A stretch of DNA of 64,000 nucleotides from Fimicolochytrium jonesii. Taxonomy: Eukaryota. The stretch is from NCBI RefSeq assembly GCF_025526975.1, contig NW_026515672.1, positions 1 to 64,000 on the forward strand. Direction: 5' to 3'. Below, one piece after another: positions 33,909 to 48,504 of the stretch. The translations under genes and the position numbers were made by a program. The notes beneath the pieces were generated by a model. That model was not told the origin of the DNA. It ran no database searches and was given only the letters and a program-made list of their open reading frames with translations. How positions within the stretch are numbered: the stretch's first letter is position 1; the number at the start of each line of letters is the position of its first letter.

Positions 33909-34759
33909 TCAAGCGGACGCATTCGCCGCCCTCGCACCCTCCCCACCAGCAAGCACATCATCGTCATGCACAGGCAAATAAACCCCTCCGCTGACCCCAT
34001 ACTTTGTCGGGTGGGCCCTCAAATCCACAAAGTAGCTGTAAACGCATGCGGCATAGTAAACCGACAACGCGGTCCCAAACACAAACGAGACGGCGACCGA
34101 CCACGTCTGCATCGCGCATGAGAGCTGCAGCTCTGGGTTTGTTGGGGGGAGGGGGGCCGGGGTAGGGGAGGGTTCACCGTGACCGTGGCCGTGGCCATGT
34201 TTGCCGAACCCGGTGACGACGGCGTCCCCGTCACGGCAGTTGACCGCAAAGACGACCAGACTAACCACGCCCGTCAAGAACTTTACAACGGTCTCAACGA
34301 TGTTGAAGTAAGCAAACAGCCTGACTTTAGCAAGGTCGTTACGGATCGCGCCATAGAGACCCAGGGCGGAAAAGGCGATGGTGGTGAGTGCCCAAGCGGA
34401 GTCAGCGAGGAGGAGGACGGTGAACGCGCGGACTTTTTGGACGGGAGGGAGTGGGTGGGAGGGGTCGATGGGGTCCGGGGAGTTGGGGTCGTCTGGGGTG
34501 AGGAAGCGGCCGCCGGAGCCGATGACGTCCCACTCGAGGAGGAGGGAAAGGATGGAGCCGATCTGTTTGTGGGGATATGATATGGAGATAGTTAGAGAGC
34601 ATGCAGGGCGGTATGCTTTGGCTTTTACCGCTTGGCACGAGAGAGACTTACGAGAGCGAGCGAGGAGAGGATGATTGTGCCCGTCCTGAGCGAGAAGCAG
34701 CCGCAGCAGGTGCGCAGGGACTTGAGACGGCGGGTTGTTGTTGCGATGGGTTCGGCCAT
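33909..34759 (-). CDS. Four-TM membrane protein (LAPTM-like N-terminus), multi-exon
   Basis: MAEPIATTTRRLKSLRTCCGCFSLRTGTIILS, several hydrophobic segments, YYAACVYSYF. Confidence 0.65.
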
Positions 34760-34937
34760 TGTTGCTGGGTGGGTGGCTGGCTGGTTGAGAGGATGAGGAG
34801 GTGTGTGCGTATGAGGATCAGACGAGTTGTTCGGGGGGGGGGGGGGGGGGGGGCGTCCTTTTGAATGGCTTTGTGGAGGCTTTTGGAGGCAGTTTTGGAG
34901 GGGTGGGAACTCGCAGCTGAGAGAGCGACAGACAGAG

Positions 34938-35188
34938 AGAAGTCACCGGCTGGTCGCGCACACCGGACACACCCATTTGGGGGCGCGTGACTTCTACCAC
35001 CAAGAACATCTGTGGGAGAGGATCTGATGACCGATGTGAGGAAGAGGCTTGGGGACGTGAAAAACGCCAAGTCTCTTGCTTCTCTATTCTGCGTACAAGT
35101 TGCCTTCATCGGCGACGCCTCAGGCAGAGGTACAATGATGTGGATGGCAGATAACCACCACGGAAAATGGGATGGGGTGAAATCTAGA
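34938..35188 (-). ncRNA. Candidate Fanzor omegaRNA scaffold; boundaries uncertain
   Basis: Immediately 3' of the Fanzor stop. Hairpin 35042-35077 (11-bp stem, 1 mismatch) nested in a stem pairing 35103-35112 with 35031-35041. Second structure closed by a perfect 9-bp stem, 34938-34946 with 34987-34995. Confidence 0.45.
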
Positions 35189-36100
35189 CTACCGGTTACG
35201 GGAGAATGCGTCTGGTCTGCGGCCATTGCCAAACACCACCGAACGCACAATGAAGAGGAAATTCTTGGTGCTCAGGACGTCCCGATTGTGCACTCTCATC
35301 CGTAGTCGTAGTGGTCGTTGTCTTCCAGGAATCTCAAATGGCGTCCAGTCTTGGTTGATACATTCGGGGTTGGGGCAACCCACCAATCCATGGACGAATT
35401 CCATTCTTCCTTTCTAGCTTGCCACGGCCGAGATGACAGCCGGCGTCGGATGTTTTTCTTCACACGCCCGTGGCAGTCTGGGCACACGGACGACGTTCGA
35501 TACTCATCCAGCAAGTAGCATGGAATGCCGTTTCTCGCAAAGAGTGTGCGGAATCTAAATTCCATGATGAGTTAGCATATTATAGTACATAAAAAACAAT
35601 GATGGTCACTCACCCCTTGGTTTTCGATGACTCCTGAAAGCGCATCGTTTTCCCAGCATCGCTCCAATCACCCAAGATGACCGAAAAATGCTTTCCATAC
35701 CGGCACCGCATGTTCTTAATGAGCTTGCTCTCAGACTTTTGCCGCAGTGAGAACGCCTTGAACCTGCGAGCGACGTGAATCTCATCCTGGTAAAACTCAT
35801 CCAAGGCGGGATCTGGGATATGGATGGATGTCAGCCCATGTATTACTAAATTTGAAGACAGCGCATAATACATCATACCTGCATGTATGTGATCCACAAT
35901 GAACGCTGAGAACGCCTCGATGTTCATGCTCTTGTGCGATGGAATATGTGATTCCATCTCAGCGATGCCGGCATTGATCTTTCGCTCTCTCATGTCTCTT
36001 TGAAAGTACCGAGACTTTGTCTCGACCGCCCGTTGATTGGATGTGTATCTGGTATGGGGTGGTGCATTGTGAGAACGCTGCAACGGAATGTCGCCGCAAT

Positions 36101-36313
36101 GGGGATGGTGGGCGGAGACGGGGGGCTGGGGGGCGGAGACAGGGGGCTGGGGGCGGAGACGGGGGGCTGGGGGGCGGAGACGGGGGGATGGTGGGCGGAG
36201 ACGGGGGGCTGGCGGGCGGAGACGGGGGGATGGTGGGCGGAGATGGGGGGCTGGGGGCGGAGACGGGGGGCTGGGGGGCGGAGACGGGGGGGCTGGGGGG
36301 CGGAGACGGGGGG
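36101..36313. repeat. G-rich minisatellite, about 10 copies of a 20-22 bp unit (GGGGGCGGAGACGGGGGGCT-like), in Fanzor intron 4
   Basis: GGCGGAGA core recurs 10 times. Confidence 0.9.
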
Positions 36314-36335
36314 CAGTAGTAATCAACTGAATCGA

Positions 36336-36434
36336 CGCTGTCGCCGCTGTCGCCGCTGTTGCCGCTGTCGCCGCTGTTGCCGCTATCCCCGCTGTCGCCG
36401 CTGTCGCCTCTGTCGCCGCTATCCCCGCTGTCCC

Positions 36435-36475
<41 letters not shown>

Positions 36476-36515
36476 TCCCCGCTATCCCTGCTGTCCCCGC
36501 AGTCGCCACTGTCGC
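36336..36515. repeat. 9-bp tandem repeat (CGCTGTCGC and variants), about 20 copies, in Fanzor intron 4
   Basis: Direct inspection; followed by about 4 copies of CCCCGT at 36529-36550. Confidence 0.9.
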
Positions 36516-38385
36516 CCTCCTCAACCCTCCCCGTCCCCGTCCCCGTCCCCACGATCCCCTTCGTTCGACATTCTGCAATCAGCTGAAACTTACCTAAATG
36601 GCCGCTCCTTCTTGATGTCTCGGCAGAACAAGAGGTCACGCTTGCCCGGATCAATGCTGACGATGTTTGGAGCCTCCCGTAGTTTGGCGATGTGGTGCTC
36701 AAAATACAGCAGCTTGACTTCCTCCCGCATTTGGGCCTTGCTGCGCTTCCAGGGCCGATGCCCATACTTGAGCCCTGGCTTCTTGAAGTGGATGGTAGCG
36801 GAATACCCGTTTGTGCTGATTGACCCATCAAATTTGAGACCAAGCTTCTTTCGATGCTTGAAGACCTTGTCCTACAATCCGTCATTCAGCAAGGTAATCA
36901 GATTGAAATAAGCGCAGAAGGATACAGACTTACATTGATATTGAGAAACTGCCCCCACAGCTCCCGCTTGCGTTGATCGGTGAGTTTCCCCATGCGATGG
37001 TGGCCCAAGGCCAGGATATGAGTGGTTAGGATCTTCGTGTCGATCCGAACAGATGACTGGATTCAAGATTTGCGCAGCGGGATAGCGGAAAACAGCCGCA
37101 TTCCACGGCGCTCATAGAGGCGTGAGAGCTCACAATAGGCACCTGTGATGAGGCAGGTGCGGACTATGATTAGACAAAAGAAGAAGCAGCGGGGGGGGGG
37201 GGCGTAAATATACAGGATGTAACTCACCTAAATATGGCATTGCGTCCACCGCAAGGCTGTATGCAAGCGGTTCATCCTGGGGAGGAAACAGAGCCCATAA
37301 CTCATCGAGGACGGTCCGCTCAAGTCGTGTGAGGCGCGCAAACTCTTCTTCGGTTGGAAACTCTTCAAACGTCGCATACTTTTTAAACTGACGGACACGC
37401 TGATAATAGTGTTGCCGCTGCGCTCGGTTGACTCCAGCTCTACGGAGATGCAGTACAACTTGCTTCAAACCAAGCCTTTCATTGACGTAGCGCAGAAACA
37501 TTTGCATGAAATGCTCTTGTACGTTAACTTTGAGGTTTGTGAAGATGCTCGTAGCTGTGTACGCTGCGGTCTGTTGGCAATACCGCATGCGGATGGGGGC
37601 GAATCCGTGAACATCACAGTAGTCTTGAACCCATGGATGCAACTCTTGCGCGATGACCGGATTGCCGTTGTAGCCTGGATTGTTTAGCAGCTCAAATATC
37701 ACACTGATGTGCTTGTCGGTGATGTCCGGGAAATCGTGTAGAGGATGATCAGCTGTGGTGGGGGGCAGACGTAGCAGTCAGGACATTGGTTTATGGGAAA
37801 TATACAGTGTACCTCAAAAACTCACCAAGGTAGTACTTGAGAAAAAAGCTGGTGTGGCGCGCAAGGATGTGAACATTGCCGATGAATGTTGTCAGGCGCT
37901 CCCTTTGCTCCCTTTGAACTTGATTATGGATGATTCGGTGAAGCGAAACCTTGGTGCTGGCATGTGTTTGCGGGCGGGGTCGTTGAACTGGTGGTGGTGG
38001 CGGGGGCTCAAGCACCAGGGATCCACCCGGTGTGCTGGGAAAAAGGAAAGGGATGGGAGCGGGGAGGTTCAACGGGCACTGCAGACCCCTGTCCGCGGGT
38101 GAAAGCCCTCGCTGCGGCAGCAGCTGCTGCTGCCCGTCTTCATCGCCGGAGCTCTCGCCGGAACTCTCGCTAACCATGTCTGCAATTGCTTGGGGCAAGT
38201 GGCGTTGGACAGACGGTGGGAATTCGAATCGCGGGGGTGGTTGCAATGGTGTCTGCACAGCGGTTGGCAGACGTATGGGCAACCGCGGGGTAACCGGAGC
38301 AACCTTCCTCCTCTTCCGCCGTGGTGTGGTAGCTCCGGTAAAGATGCCACACCACAGGTGCCCCTGGAGCGCCTGGTGTGACGGC

Positions 38386-39503
38386 ATGATGGCCGTGCTG
38401 TGCCTTAAGTCAGCCGAGACGGGTGGTGATTGCCGTGATAGCTGTGTGTCAAGGAACTCACGTCAGTGCTGTGGTAATGAGGCTGAGAACGGTGAGGAAT
38501 TGCGGTTGTTACCTGGTGGCGGGGTAGGGGTGGCGAGACGGGAATAAGATATCCAGAAATACGTTGTCAGAATCTCAAGGCAGACTACAGTACGATGTGG
38601 TGTGAGGACCACCTGCAGCAGACGCCCAACTGTCCTGCAGGCATTCGTTCATACAAGCGCAAGACGGCGTGTGGGGACCGCGACAACAACGAGGACTTTC
38701 GTGAGATCAGGTGTTCGGAGCTCCCGTACGATATCAACAGCCTGAGCTTGGACGACCTACAACAGGCCAAACCAGAACTGCTACGACGGCAAGACCAGGT
38801 GAGGCGTTGCTTACAAAGGCGCAGAAGTTTTGAAGAGGCCTGCATCCACGGCAGCCAGCGGGACCAGAGGCACGCTAACGTCTTTCTCGATTTGGACGAT
38901 GAGGGGGTACTATGTGAAGAGCTTCGCACTCGACTATTAGATCGCCTTTCACGGTTAGAAAGAGAGTTCTTTCATGAAAGGGAAGCTGCCCAGGCCGATG
39001 TACGAGAGGCCGGGGAGAGGCTGCAGACGGTGAGCAATAAGATAGAGCAGGTAAGCGAGGTTGCTAGCCCGTTTCGCTACAACAGATACTCAAGCACTTC
39101 CCGTCCGCAGGTCCAGGCGCTACGGAGAGGTAAGGGCTCACGAAGAAAGTCCAATGTTCCCGCACATCCTATTAATCCACCTATAGATGAAACACAGCTT
39201 GACAGGGCGTATGAGGATGCCCGGGTAGTGTTGGTGGAGAGTATAGAAGATCTTGCGGACCGGTTTGAAGACGGACCCGACGCCTTCGAGTACCTGCTCT
39301 TTGCGGCGTGGTTGCAGTTGATGGACGATCGAGGGCTTCAGTTCATACCGTTCAGCGGGAATATTTACGTGGCCCTCGTCCGCACCCCATCGATGACCCC
39401 CGAATTGTTGAGCAGGCTCCTGGACATGGTGCGACGGCCCTCTGCAGGTCTTTTGGCGTTGGGTCAGGCATATAGTCGTAGAGGTCTAGAAGATGCTAGT
39501 TAA
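38386..39503 (+). CDS. Hypothetical Cys/His-motif helical protein, divergent from Fanzor
   Basis: ORF 38595-39503 with an in-frame intron at 39051-39110. A putative intron at 38492-38556 extends it to QCCGNEAENEIRCQN...WCEDH. Start uncertain. Confidence 0.5.
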
Positions 39504-39573: not shown

Positions 39574-39748
39574 GGGCGTTTCACTAGCCCCCAATAATCG
39601 AAAACAGTAACGGCAGATAATTGCGAGATTAGCGAAACTACGAGCGCGTTTCGCGACGCGTCCAGAGTTCGTGCGCGCAGGCTCCCCCCAATCACGTCCC
39701 GATGATCTGTCGGGCTTCTCCCGATTTTCTGGGGCTAGTGAGGCCCCC
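39574..39748. repeat. Imperfect inverted repeat, possible DNA-transposon terminus or MITE
   Basis: TCACTAGCCCCCAATAATCG (39581-39600) versus CGATTTTCTGGGGCTAGTGA (39722-39741). Confidence 0.6.
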
Positions 39749-39921: not shown

Positions 39922-41492
39922 ATGTTGTCTGCTGACGCTGGACCCTCTACTGCCGGGGCTCCCGGGGCCCACAAGCCCCGGGCAAAGAAGCCAAGCGCGA
40001 AGTCCGCTGCGGGGAAGCAGCGGGCGGACGGTGAATACGCTTTTTGGGACAACAAAGGAGAGGCGCTCTTGGTGGATTGGCTCTCTACGGGCGAGAACTC
40101 CAAGGCCCTGCAACATCGCGACACCCCGACGCCAACGGGGTCAACCGCTCGAAGAAGGATAGGCGAACGGACGTGATTCGGAAGATAAAAATGTTCATGT
40201 ATGAGAACCGAAAGGACATGACCGAGACTCACATCAAGAACAAGCTTGCACAGTGGGATAAGAAGTTCAAGGAGGCCCAGTGCCGATTCAATCAGACGGG
40301 GGAGGGTCTCACGGAGGAGGAGAAGAGGAATACCCCCAACATACAAACCTGTATTGTCAAGATCTTCCCGTATTTCTTAAAGCTCGAGCCTTATTGGTCC
40401 CACGCTGGCACGACGGCCTTGCACTCGGTAGGGTCTCAGGAGTCAATGGCCGACTCGTCAATCTTGCCCTCGAACCTCGCCGCCGCGCTGGTCCCGGGGG
40501 CCCCACCACAGTCACCTTCGCTTTGTGAGTCGCCGGACGAGGCCGGGACGCCGGAGGACTCGGAAACCGCGGGGTCCCATGAAACGCCGCAGGACACGCA
40601 GTCCGAGACACAGAACCCGTCGGAGACGCCGCCAGAGACGCCGCCAGACACGCAGGAGCAGCTGGGGTCGCAGCTTCACTCCCAACTGGGAGTTTTTGCG
40701 CGTATGGAGTTGCAAATGGCCCAGGAGGACATACTGGAGGGGTCCGCAGCCGGCGATGGGGAGTCCCCAACCTATGGGGGGCCGTCTAGCGGTTGGCAGA
40801 GTCATGATACACCCGCTCCTCCTGTTCCGGTGGTCCCCGCTACCCCTGTCGTGCCTGCCACGGCATCCGGGGAGCAGGTCTCTGGCGCGCAACCCCTCTC
40901 CAGCGCTCGTAAGGCTCTGTACCAGGTGCAAACCAGTCAGTCTACCGCCGCTAGCCCGGCAGCGTCCGCCCTGCACACGCCCACGCAGGCAACTATGAAA
41001 GCCACTAGGAAGCAAAAGAGCTCCGCCGTATCGGATCTCGCGGACCCCGTTACGTCGGATGACAAGGCCGGGAAGAGCGGGGCAGGTAGTAGTCGCAGCG
41101 CCCGGGTGAAATCCGGGATGATGACTGTCATCAGTGCCGTGATGGCGGGCGGGATAGACCGAACTCGCCTCAAAATGGATATGGAGGAGCGCCGCATGGC
41201 AAGGGAATCTGCGCTGGATGAGCAGATACTTGAAGAGAGGCGGTTGGACAGAGAGGAGGCCGGTCAACGCTTTCAGTTGGAGCTTGAGGAGCGCCAAGAG
41301 GCGAGGGAGGCAGAGCTCGAGGAGCAGTGGTTTGCCAGGGAGTCCGCGGAGTGACAATTCCAGCTGGAGCTTGAGGAACGGCGCGCGGACGCCGAGAGAC
41401 GCAGGCTGGACAGCAAGCGCAAATGGGATTTCAAGATGAAGGCCATCGAGATGAAGGCCAGGCTGCGGGACACCAAACCCACCGCGCAGTAG
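39922..41492 (+). pseudogene. Myb/SANT-like (trihelix) DNA-binding protein of PIF/Harbinger accessory type, decayed
   Basis: FWDNKGEALLVDWLSTGEN, frameshift near 40100-40140, IKNKLAQWDKKFKEAQCRFNQTGEGL...FPYFLKLEP, disordered middle, coiled-coil tail; premature TGA at 41352. Confidence 0.6.
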
Positions 41493-43750: not shown

Positions 43751-44677
43751 ATGTCCGACGCCCTTCCCCTCACGGCCGAAGCCTGGCAAGCCATGTGCAA
43801 TGCGATTGACGAACTTCGAGCACAGAATACCACCCTACAAGCCGAACTAGCGCAAACCCAGACCACTGCCCCTGCCACCCACGCCCCCGAACCCAAAATC
43901 AGTCTCCCAGACAAATTTGATGGCACCCGAAGCAAGTTCCGTGGGTTCCTCAACCAGATCCGGCTCATGTTCGCCCTCCAACCCAGGCGCTACCCCAACG
44001 ATCAGACCAAGATACGAACTATTGGCACCTACCTCACTGGCACCGCCCAGGCCTGGCTGGCGCCCCTTGTCGAACAAGACCATCATTCCCTTACGAACCT
44101 GGATGATTTCATCCAGCAAATGCAAGCAGTCTTTGGAGACAGCGACAGGATCCGCACGTCCGAAAACAAGCTCCAGAACCTTCGACAAACCCGTGCAGCA
44201 ACAGAGTATGTAGCTGAATTCCGACAGCTGCAATGCGATGTGTTGTGGAATGACCAGGCATTGATTGCCACCTTCCGTCGCGGCCTCAAAGAAGACGTCA
44301 AGGACTTAATGCTCACGATGCCCCCTACCGCCTCAATCGACACCGTGATGGAACAGGCCATCCAATGTGACAACCGATTGTTTGAGCGCCGTCTAGAGCG
44401 AAGCAGGAACCGACAGCCATATGTGCCAGTTACCACTAGCCCCACCCTCATGAGCCCCGACAACCGCCCAGACGACCCTATGATCATTGACGCTGCTCGT
44501 CCGCGAGGACCCCTCACACCGCTAGAGCGCCAACACCGCATCACAAACAAACTTTGCCTCTACTGTGGTAAACCCGGCCACATAGCCAAACTCTGCCCGA
44601 ACAAGATACGCACGGCGAATGTCGCGGTTAAGGAACCTGCACCCATCCAGGATTTTGCCCAAGTCCAGCTGCAGTAA
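43751..44677 (+). CDS. gag: Gag with CCHC zinc knuckle, copy 1
   Basis: PDKFDGTRSKFRGFL, CLYCGKPGHIAKLC. Confidence 0.93.
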   Translation: MSDALPLTAEAWQAMCNAIDELRAQNTTLQAELAQTQTTAPATHAPEPKISLPDKFDGTRSKFRGFLNQIRLMFALQPRRYPNDQTKIRTIGTYLTGTAQAWLAPLVEQDHHSLTNLDDFIQQMQAVFGDSDRIRTSENKLQNLRQTRAATEYVAEFRQLQCDVLWNDQALIATFRRGLKEDVKDLMLTMPPTASIDTVMEQAIQCDNRLFERRLERSRNRQPYVPVTTSPTLMSPDNRPDDPMIIDAARPRGPLTPLERQHRITNKLCLYCGKPGHIAKLCPNKIRTANVAVKEPAPIQDFAQVQLQ

Positions 44678-47600
44678 AGGCCGAGCAGCTGGGCAACACC
44701 TGTCCTGGGCCTTCTCACCACGCAAGTACTGCCAAGGGAGAAGCCACAAAACCTTGCTCCGATCCTGGCATCTCCAGCAACACCCTTCTCCTGACCACCA
44801 ACAATGTCAATCTCCTATCTGAGATACCCTCACCCATGCGGACTTTGGGCCCATCCTCACCATTCGAGTACCCTGTTACCCTGCAGATATCGGCCCAGCG
44901 AGCTCCAGTTCAGCTTTCAGCACTACTCGACACCGGTGCGATGTCGTGCTTCATCGACGAAAGTTATGCCCGCAAGCACCGCATCCCACTGGTCAAGAAG
45001 GAGGACCCCATTGCGCTTGAACTGGTTGACGGACGTCCCAGCCATGCGGGCTCCATTACCCATCACACCCAACCTTTAGGCATGTGGGTCAACGACCATT
45101 TTGAGGAGGTGGTATTCCATGTGACATGTTCCCCGCATGCGCCAATCATCCTGGGGCTTCCCTGGTTTGAGCTCCATGATGTGGAGCTACATTGGAAGAC
45201 TCGCACTCTTTCCATCCGCTGCCATTGCGGTTTTGGACAATACGCCTCCTGGGATGCCCTGCCAACAGAACCTAGCCCGAAGCCCTCAAGAACCCCTGAA
45301 CCTCTGATCCGTATCCATCAAGACGAGATTTCAGTCTCCCTAGCCCAGACACCCAACACACTGGACCCAGCACCCACACCGATCCACGTATCGTTTATCA
45401 GCGCCCCAGCTTTCCGTGTGGCGGCAAGGCATGACCAGGCATTCATTGCCTACGCCAATCCGACCAAGTCAGATTCCCAAGCCCTGGCGACCACTCCTCC
45501 AAAAGATCCGAAGGCCATCATTCCTGAAGAATACCAAGATTTTGCGGACGTCTTTGCCAAGAAGAACGCGGATACCCTCCCAGAGCACTGACCCTACGAC
45601 TGTCCCATCGACTTAGAAGAGGGCAAACAGCCACCGTTCGGCCCGATCTATAGTCTCAGCGAGCCTGAAATGCAGGCACTCTGTGACTACCTTGAAGAGA
45701 ACCTAGCTAAGGGGTTCATCAAGCACTCCAAGTCTCCCGCCGGTGCCCCAGTCCTCTTTGTCAAGAAAAAGGACGGTTCCCTCCGTCTGTGCGTCCACTA
45801 TCGTGGACTCAACAATATCACCATCAAGAATCGCTATCCCTTGCCCTTGATTAACAGCATCATGGATCGTCTTCGAGGGGCACGCCGGCTCACCAAGATT
45901 GACCTCCGGGGAGCCTACAACCTTCTTCGGATCCGGCCAGGGGATGAATGGAAGACAGCGTTCCGATGTCGCTACGGCCTATTCGAGTATAATGTCATGC
46001 CGTTTGGGCTCACCAATGCCCCTGGAGTATTCCAACACCTCATGAACGACATATTCCGTGACATTCTCGACGTTTTTGTTGTGGTCCACCTTGACGACAT
46101 TCTGATCTTCTCAAAAAACCCAGAAGACCACCCCACCCACGTCCGAGAGGTGCTCTCACGACTCCGCCAGCACGGGCTGTATGCGAAACCGGAAAAATGC
46201 GAATTCAACCGTGACTCTGTTGAGTTCCTGGGGTTTATCATCTCCCAGCAAGGCATTTCCATGGACCCAAAGAAGACGGCTGCCATTACCGAATGGGAAC
46301 CCCCGACGAATGTCAAAGGCATCCAGCGCTTCCTTGGTTTTGCCAACTTCTACCGGCGATTCATCAAAGGGTACTCTGCGATCGTTGCACCCCTGACCAC
46401 GCTCACTTGCAAAGACTTGCCATTCAAATGGACCCACGCTGCACACCTAGCTTTTGAAACCCTCAAGAACGCCTTCACCTCCGCACCTATCCTGACTCAC
46501 CCCGACCCTGACAAGCCCTTCATTGTCGAATCCGATGCCTCCGACTTTGCCCTTGGCGCCGTCCTCCTTCAACCCGATGACACAGATCAACTCCACCCCG
46601 TGGCCTTTCACTCCCGCAAATTTACTCCTGAGGAAATCAACTATGAGATCTACGACAAGGAACTCCTGGCTATCCAAGACTCATTTGCTCAATGGCGACA
46701 CCACCTCATTGGTGCCCGCCACAAGGTTATCGTTTACTGTGACCACAAGAACCTCCAGTACTTCATGACTACCCGTACCCTCAACCGCCGCCAATCCCGC
46801 TGGTCAATCTTCTTTGCTGATTTCGACTTTGTCATCACATACCGCCCTGGTACCCAGCAACACCAAGCTGACGCCCTCTCTCGTCGCTCTGAATACGAGC
46901 TAAGGGAGGGGGAAGAAGCATTCCGCTCCCAGGAAACCACGATCCTCACCCCTGACCATCTCCGCCTGGCCGCCACTTATCTGACCCCACTGGACTCCTC
47001 GCTCCTTGACCAAATCAAAGCTGCCCTGGCATCCGATGTGTTTGCGCAAACCATCCGGCGACAGCTTAGGGCCCCCATTGCCCAGCAATCTCAAGAAGAC
47101 CAAGAACGGATAAAGCGATTCTCCGAGGAAAATGGGGTTCTGCTATACGACAACCTTGTCTACGTCCCCACCAACAAGCTCCGTGCTGAGATCTGCCGGG
47201 ACATGCATGACACGCGTTTGGCAGGACACTACGGCATGTCAAAGACCCTGGAGCTCATCTCACGCAACTACTGGTGGCCTAGCCAGTGGCGTTTTGTCAA
47301 GTCCTACATCAGGTCCTGCGACGTATGTGCTCAAGCCAAGACCAGCAGACAAAAGCCCTACGGTCTCCTCCAACCCCTGCAGATCCCTGACCGCCCCTGG
47401 GGGTCAATTTCCATGGACTTCATCACGGATCTACCCGCCAGTGATGGGGTTGATTCTGTGCTCGTTGTCATCTGCCGGTTCACCAAGATGGCGCACTTTG
47501 TACCGTGCAGGAAAACTGCCACCGCTGAGTCAACTGCAGATCTGATCTGGCACCATGTCATCCGGGTCCATGGACTCCCCGACGATATTGTATCTGACCG

Positions 47601-48504
47601 TGGCCCACAGTTCAACTCCCACTTCTGGAAACGTCTCTTCGCTCTCCTGGGAACCAAGGTCAACCTCTCATCGGCGTTCCATCCCCAGAGCGATGGACAA
47701 ACCGAGCGGACCAATCAGATTCTTGAGCAATACCTTCGCTGCTTTTGCAACTATCAACAAGATAACTGGAAGGAACTCTTGTCTTCTGCTGAGTTCTCTT
47801 ACAATAACACCATCCACTCCGCCACCCAGACAACCCCCTTCTACGCCAACTATGGGTTCCATCCTCGATTCAGTCTGGCTTCCGCCACCACAACCGAATC
47901 CCTTAATCCTGCAGCCGAAGCTCGTGCCAACCTTCTCAAGGAAATCCATGAACAGCTTGCCACTGAGCTCAAGGAGGCCCAAGGACGCATGAAGCGCTTT
48001 GCCGATGCTAAGAGGGCACCTGGCCCAGACATGAAACCCGGGGACAGTGTCTGGCTCTTACAGCGGAATCTCAAGACTCTCCGACCTTCCCAGAAACTTG
48101 ATCACTGTCAGATTGGCCCCTTCACAATCACGGAGAAGATCAACTCGGTCACATATCGCCTCAAGCTTCCCCCATCCTACAAAATTCACAACGTCTTCCA
48201 TGTCTCCCTTCTTGAACCACGTTTCACCATTCTGGAGCGAACTGAGCCAGAACCCACCCCACCAGAAGAAGTCGAAGGACAGGAGGAATGGATTGTGGAA
48301 GACATTCTTGACTCCCGTATTCGACGCACGCACCTTCAGTACCTCATCAAGTGGCAGGGTTGGCCAAGCTCGGAGAACACATGGGAGCCAGTGGAACACC
48401 TTGCCCGATGTCAAGAGCTTGTTGCCCAGTTCCACCAAAAGTACCCCGACAAACCCCGACCAAAGCCTGCCAACATCAAAACAACATCCGGACGCCGTGG
48501 CTAA
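44632..48504 (+). pseudogene. pol: Pol (PR-RT-RNaseH-IN-chromodomain), copy 1, defective
   Basis: LLDTGA protease, RT, ESDASD RNase H, HHCC and DDE integrase, chromodomain [20 protein letters not shown] at 45589, YLDD changed to HLDD, CVDY changed to CVHY. Confidence 0.93.
44650..44713 (+). promoter_or_regulatory. -1 programmed ribosomal frameshift signal for gag-pol
   Basis: G_GAT_TTT at 44650-44656, 6-nt spacer, stem 44663-44672 with 44685-44694, loop AAGGCC pairing with GGCCTT at 44708-44713; pol is in the -1 frame. Confidence 0.7.

Follow-up and report, generated by a model that had tools for sequence, protein, structure and literature searches.

A predicted omegaRNA gene of the known Fanzor1 type behind a broken Fanzor1 copy in Fimicolochytrium jonesii

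Does the DNA that follows the stop codon of a Fanzor1 gene in Fimicolochytrium jonesii encode an omegaRNA, where would such an RNA begin and end, and could it act beside a gene that is itself broken? The locus lies in a 64-kb stretch of DNA (hereafter the window), in which the first-pass annotation had placed a candidate omegaRNA within 251 nt of the minus strand. We find it probable that a broken Fanzor1 copy has its omegaRNA gene at the start of these 251 nt, with a predicted 76-84-nt scaffold (35168 to 35093/35085) and a guide of ~15 nt. This omegaRNA is likely of the known Fanzor1 type and is placed more narrowly than was first proposed. Fanzor1 omegaRNAs, ghost loci and intron-bearing Fanzors have already been published, according to accessible parts of PMC10432273, PMC10530073, PMC3627910, PMC10711439 and PMC13434818. 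At the level of titles and listings, our literature search found no description of the omegaRNA of the F. jonesii Fanzor1 family. The species is absent from the text-searchable supplements of PMC10432273 and PMC10530073 (two PDFs of the former fall outside this scope), and in the part of PMC12247965 that was accessible it is named only for a viral capsid gene, though Fanzor is also mentioned there.

The gene upstream was modelled with six GT-AG introns of 59-545 nt and has the following features:
35189-38387, minus strand: Fanzor1 (SpuFz1-like) pseudogene, with its TAG stop at 35191-35189
38387-37826, 37752-37228, 37142-36934, 36871-36594, 36048-35879, 35812-35614 and 35554-35189, minus strand: its seven exons
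37063-37065, minus strand: in-frame premature TGA in exon 3
35400-35413 (near 35405), minus strand: frameshift in the last exon, before the third catalytic Asp

Three exons match SpuFz1 in the PDB by protein search (E 7.5e-24, 6.7e-16 and 4.6e-10) and the F. jonesii public model P0002 agrees with the exons; a Pfam search of the gene returned no Fanzor1 model passing the cut-off. The RuvC D-E-D residues, the DPG/DPN motif with the rearranged glutamate and homology to solved Fz1 are all present in the family. An uninterrupted reading frame is absent from this copy, a point missing from the first-pass annotation. The TGA (37065-37063) occupies a site that is Arg in 18 of 20 proteins matching the surrounding pattern, and at the frameshift the frame continues in 43 of the 44 proteins with this context, the exception being the model of this very locus; the third catalytic Asp of this copy sits behind the frameshift. 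The WED-domain site reads TNG here (among 28 matching proteins: TNG in 22, TDG in 5, other in 1). The Fanzor1 gene and its two lesions are firmly established, as are the TTTTCC-SL1 motif and its position described below; judged from its sequence, the copy is a pseudogene, barring an assembly error at both lesion sites. Its fourth intron (36593-36049, 545 nt) contains 9-nt and longer GC-rich tandem repeats, and since the model of paralog P0016 continues into related but shorter sequence, this intron seems to grow via repeats.

F. jonesii has more than 40 annotated copies of SpuFz1-like Fanzor1. A first protein search returned 15 F. jonesii models besides P0002 (56-98% identity), and protein searches together with cluster look-ups gathered ~64, some of them pieces of one locus; a pattern selected 65 models, one of them from Spizellomyces. 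The C-terminal motif is found in 42 of the ~64 F. jonesii models, and REC together with all three catalytic residues in 4. The intact paralog P0010 matches SpuFz1 with E 3.5e-139. In alignment with SpuFz1, the paralog P0071 retains D383, E541 and D606 as well as W570, R414 and R387, the three residues gripping the 5' UCC; its SL1-contact residues are identical at 9 of 17 positions, close to the overall 46%, and its linker contacts at 0 of 4. Within the window, blastn found neither a second Fanzor copy nor a ghost element. The viral contigs searched contained no relative, and the bacterial genomes searched yielded one contig, without a 3' flank. Table S2 of PMC10711439, as far as it was accessible, has 33 F. 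jonesii Fanzor rows of this gene family, which give protein sequences only and do not include the model of this locus. One further model, P0053, has a Fanzor piece fused to an N-terminus that resembles a tyrosine recombinase (PF00589 at E 0.00056, below cut-off); this fusion is likely a nested insertion, and possibly involves a Crypton-type partner.

Directly 3' of the Fanzor ORF and on the same strand, we delineated the following elements, all on the minus strand:
35162-35168, minus strand: likely omegaRNA 5' end, ATTTTCC, starting 21 nt past the Fanzor stop, by motif likeness
35140-35161, minus strand: stem-loop 1 (SL1), GTGGTGG / CCATCCAC, with one bulge and the loop TTATCTG, by fold and motif
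35134-35139, minus strand: 6-nt linker, of the same length as in SpuFz1 (sequence; accessible part of PMC10432273)
35093-35133, minus strand: predicted stem 2, with GTAC/GTAC closing and TGCCT/AGGCA inside, in the lowest-energy fold
35085-35092, minus strand: putative alternative 3' arm of stem 2, GCAGA with TCTGC, ending in TA (pair probability 0.21)
35078-35092, minus strand: predicted 15-nt guide for a scaffold ending at 35093, after the 14-15-nt extension of SpuFz1
35084-35070, minus strand: predicted guide for a scaffold ending at 35085

The start is the best supported part. According to the accessible parts of the sources, the SpuFz1 omegaRNA combines a scaffold of 75 nt, including a linker of 6 nt, with a guide of 14-15 nt, and is contacted at U5, C6 and C7 (PMC10432273), and SL1 has 7 bp in three Fz1 structures, the region past SL1 being variable and the Fz1 scaffold ranging from 75 to 150 nt (PMC11423790). 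The motif WWTCC-N6-GTTRTC, as compared by eye, opens 7 of 7 published omegaRNAs of Spizellomyces (five) and Parasitella (two) in a supplement table of PMC10432273. The 64-kb window, for which 0.29 matches are expected, has a single one: it occupies minus-strand positions 35166-35150 and lies 23 nt after the Fanzor stop on the same strand. A 5' UCC followed by a 7-bp SL1 is present here, with a loop of 7 nt versus 6 nt in relatives. SL1 has a z-score of -3.7, with 0 of 200 shuffles as stable and a pair probability of 0.97, but a hairpin as stable occurs in 21 of 40 random 251-nt stretches. The weight of SL1 lies in its sequence motif and its position, its energy being unremarkable. The TTTTCCG segment, which had been taken as a mark of the RNA, does open SL1, a hairpin not described in the first-pass annotation; alone it is not specific, as it occurs 10 times in the window.

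Distant loci gave further, weaker support. A metagenome scan collected 44 Fanzor1 loci, of which 31 extend to the C-terminus, 27 of them with sufficient 3' flank. A TCC-stem-loop descriptor, widened after the 7-nt loop of the window had been seen so as to admit it, matches 17 of the 27 versus 66 of 2000 random segments, including 5 of 5 loci at 48-59% identity; among the 17 matches, the two at L036 and L037 resemble chance hits, and one family supplies several of the loci as copies. In the window the descriptor matches at SL1 and nowhere in 35130-34760, and the strict motif WWTCC-N6-GTTRTC is found at none of the metagenomic SL1 sites. In seven loci whose SL1 sequences were picked by eye, 5 of the 7 stem pairs vary on both sides, with 10 two-sided changes in all; 0 of 500 shuffles gave as many, and slid controls gave fewer. 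Covariance models built without the window find their best match within 34760-35250 at 35168-35134. The correctly paired one (R2) scores SL1 at 7.6 bits, a weak score (E 0.12 in 491 nt), and SL1 is absent from its 18 whole-window matches; R1, whose pairing is apparently shifted by one column, ranked SL1 4th of 19 window matches. An Rfam scan of the stretch gave two chance matches only (SNORD123, E 0.38; mir-290, E 3.3). These weak scores, the lack of an Rfam match of note and the frequency of hairpins this strong are what might be expected if the stretch were a 3' UTR plus host promoter with no guide-RNA gene. Such a coincidence is extremely improbable in view of a sole 64-kb match of the published motif lying 23 nt past a Fanzor1 stop, on the right strand and with a paired stem. 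It is very likely that SL1 marks the start of an omegaRNA, a placement that is well supported by likeness to the Spizellomyces and Parasitella sequences and by position, and less so by the distant loci.

The 3' end is harder to place. Stem 2 closes at 35133/35093 with a probability of 0.63, giving a 76-nt scaffold, and is weak (z -1.75); ending at 35085 instead gives 84 nt, compared with 75 nt in SpuFz1. The TA found at Spu-1 ends does not follow 35093. No inverted repeat was found for any end between 35140 and 34881, and none of those between candidate ends and the 4.8 kb upstream is significant, as 10 of 100 shuffles equalled the best score; terminal repeats of the Spu-1 type (inverted, 30-33 bp, with a TA duplication) were likewise not found within these 4.8 kb. 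A gapped likeness to the stem-2 arms near 38597-38575, noticed by eye, is not the best local match and was discounted.

Among the metagenomic loci, SL1 and the element end are ~87 nt apart in L008, 104 nt in the L009 family (four copies), 84 nt in the L019 family and ~205 nt in L012, and since these control distances vary from ~84 to ~205 nt, scaffold length alone cannot fix the 3' end. Where inverted repeat or copy divergence sets the element end, as for L008 and the L009 family, the stem that follows SL1 closes at that end; L002 and L005 have an additional hairpin ahead of the terminal stem. The inverted-repeat test is positive in L012 and L023 and weakly so in L008. At the F. jonesii locus the scaffold would end with stem 2, and the element end probably lies at 35093-35085. 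Some of these loci merit mention in their own right. The Fanzor1 element L012:1135-5102, whose inverted repeat is clear (matched in 0 of 100 shuffles), has its right end ~205 nt past SL1 and is a candidate for a long fungal-type omegaRNA. Five AT-rich loci (L009, L010, L011, L013, L015) with a distant Fanzor1 gene have a common 104-nt right end and differing flanks, from which a clean multi-copy omegaRNA is predicted. The 3' flanks of L019, L020 and L024 belong to a Fanzor1 family with a bulged SL1 and end in a GC-rich hairpin plus CTAGT; we take these ends to be Helitron-like.

The weakness of stem 2, the lack of an inverted repeat and of a TA end at 35093, the two lesions of the gene and the extra SL1 loop base, which lies beside the G whose partner in SpuFz1 is C6, would also fit a right end in decay, in which SL1 is a true relic, the element end is lost or mutated, stem 2 owes part of its pairing to chance and the copy makes no usable omegaRNA. 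We consider this quite unlikely: SL1 pairs fully, the stem stands at the expected spacing and the length is SpuFz1-like. Moreover, identity to the paralogs over exon 2 is 83-98%, so any decay is recent.

The scaffold had originally been sought in structures further downstream. All seven motifs proposed at that time occur on the minus strand where they had been placed:
35167-35161, minus strand: TTTTCCG
35112-35103, minus strand: CCGATGAAGG, 5' arm of the enclosing stem
35077-35067, minus strand: AAGAGACTTGG
35052-35042, minus strand: CCAAGCCTCTT
35041-35031, minus strand: CCTCACATCGG, other arm of the enclosing stem
34995-34987, minus strand: AGAAGTCAC
34946-34938, minus strand: GTGACTTCT
35042-35077, minus strand: 36-nt hairpin, probably flank outside the scaffold, by fold and junction peptides
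34938-34995, minus strand: branched structure, probably DNA upstream of the host gene, whose ATG follows at a distance of 180-235 nt

As a whole, the 251 nt fold no better than chance (z -1.65; 15 of 200 shuffles and 156 of 400 GC-matched window segments are as good). The 36-nt hairpin alone has a z-score of -2.9, and one as stable is found in 32 of 40 random 251-nt stretches. The enclosing stem 35112/35031 (CCGATGAAGG/CCTCACATCGG, z -0.93) has a pair probability of only 0.06 because its 5' arm is taken by another stem; it competes with stem 2 (0.63) and is probably not part of the scaffold. The branched structure (z -2.85) is mildly unusual, with an equal one in 4 of 40 random stretches.

A longer RNA that starts at 35168, uses these hairpins as extra helices, ends with the element at ~34990-34938 and takes its guide from ~34937 would agree with that mildly unusual structure, with the varying length of Fz1 scaffolds (75-150 nt in the accessible part of the source cited above), with the ~205-nt distance in L012 and with the extra hairpin of L002/L005. 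We regard it as unlikely, given that the whole region folds like chance, that the enclosing stem is so improbable and that no inverted repeat was found for any end between 35140 and 34881; the flanks of other copies also speak against it. Three F. jonesii models (P0076, P0083 and P0050) splice the last Fanzor exon into the flank, and their back-translated junction peptides each align best at 35134-35107, a coincidence met in 1 of 300 random regions, although singly they are non-significant (13/290, 126/289 and 203/287) and the bases before the matched part disagree. Beyond the predicted end, the P0083 and P0076 peptides show no likeness to 35092-34760 (scores 19.0 and 13.5). Copies simulated there with 10-20% divergence score 35-130 on average and 17.2 at the lowest, so likeness could have been detected, unless unseen introns in P0076, P0083 or P0050 skip the hairpins and hide it. 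A match of P0076 to the poly-C run 34862-34821 was rejected, being mid-protein and of low complexity, and P0015 and P0016, models with N-terminal fusions, gave no position for the left element end.

With the shorter scaffold ending at 35093/35085 that we prefer, the hairpins between 35077 and 34938 lie beyond the end suggested by homology and probably belong to DNA upstream of the host gene. The proposal of an omegaRNA scaffold after the Fanzor stop is upheld by the published motif and its position, and a guide drawn from the DNA upstream of the neighbouring membrane-protein gene fits the predicted 35092-35078 or 35084-35070.

33909-34759, minus strand: host membrane-protein gene, two exons, outside the element

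This gene has eukaryotic membrane-protein look-alikes at 0.91-0.92, and Kei1/LAPTM-like leads fall under 0.9. It is taken as a host neighbour because the neighbours of other copies differ: the downstream parts of the fused models are a CHZ-domain protein and a CUE-domain protein. In three cases (P0076, P0083 and this window) a Fanzor copy ends shortly upstream of a same-strand host gene, which could reflect an insertion preference; fused models, however, can only reveal this orientation.

Other elements surround the locus. A 302-aa ORF at 38595-39503 (plus strand) is divergent from the Fanzor ATG, 208 nt apart; it has no Pfam family and is not in the protein collection as such. A short inverted repeat at 39574-39748, beginning GGGCG, adjoins a 436-aa ORF (40044-41354) without a Pfam match, which we presume to be Myb/SANT-like; the repeat may mark one end of an element of Harbinger type that is oriented away from the Fanzor. 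Finally, near-identical copies of a Ty3/gypsy-type LTR retrotransposon stand head to tail across 43169-64000, repeating every ~3.87 kb except at two junctions, where the spacing is 5.4 kb. This array may be real or an assembly artefact; the ORFs of the first copy (43751-48504) are, presumably and by their motifs, gag-, protease- and RT/RNaseH/integrase-like.

The closest known system is Spu-1 of Spizellomyces punctatus with its SpuFz1 omegaRNA (accessible parts of PMC10432273 and PMC3627910). The proteins are ~46% identical (paralog P0071), and both RNAs share the TTTTCC 5' end, an SL1 with GTT(A/G)TC, the 6-nt linker, a second stem (a predicted one in F. jonesii), a length of ~75 nt and a place directly past the stop. 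In contrast, Spu-1 is a single intronless ORF, whereas the F. jonesii copy has six introns and a proline-rich N-terminal extension of ~140 aa; the 30-33-bp inverted repeat and CATA flank of Spu-1 were not found at this copy, its SL1 loop is one base longer, its stem 2 is unrelated in sequence, the TAM residues R96 and N133 differ and the copy is broken. The PpFz1 omegaRNA of Parasitella parasitica (PMC11423790, PMC10432273 supplement) shares the TCC, the stem, the GTTATC loop opening, a 7-bp SL1 and one further stem, but its protein is more distant (E 1e-40 vs 3.5e-139, paralog P0010) and its scaffold shorter. Ghost Spu-1 loci likewise have a guide-RNA gene without a working nuclease in cis and could act in trans, the nuclease being deleted there but present and broken here.

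By analogy with SpuFz1, a transcript running through the element end would be trimmed to the scaffold plus ~15 flanking bases, SL1 would dock on the RuvC/TNB surface, and stem 2, ending at the transposon right end, would position the bases that follow it as the guide, on the WED domain. The ribonucleoprotein may then cut the empty insertion site beside the TAM, which would favour retention of the element. As this copy cannot encode a whole nuclease, its RNA would have to be loaded in trans by an intact paralog, as Spizellomyces ghost loci can. Whether the omegaRNA of this locus is still expressed and loaded is a nearly balanced question, on which we lean slightly towards no.

A wider reading holds that, in an intron-rich F. 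jonesii Fanzor1 family without terminal inverted repeats, dozens of broken copies supply omegaRNAs to a few intact nucleases, with guides from host promoter DNA and an RNA here of up to ~250 nt that includes the helices first proposed. It appeals to several broken F. jonesii copies that sit just upstream of host genes and, if true, would amount to a natural library of many guides directed at sequences upstream of host genes; we hold it to be very unlikely. Under the reading we prefer, the biology here is what Spu-1 already shows. The predicted guide-RNA coordinates concern a Fanzor1 family that is close to SpuFz1, the Fz1 most used in genome editing, that likely has a different TAM, and that includes intact paralogs to pair with the guide RNA. 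The covarying TCC-SL1 motif with its TxxxCG-type loop, found behind many Fanzor1 genes, may serve as a single-copy locator of Fz1 omegaRNA starts.
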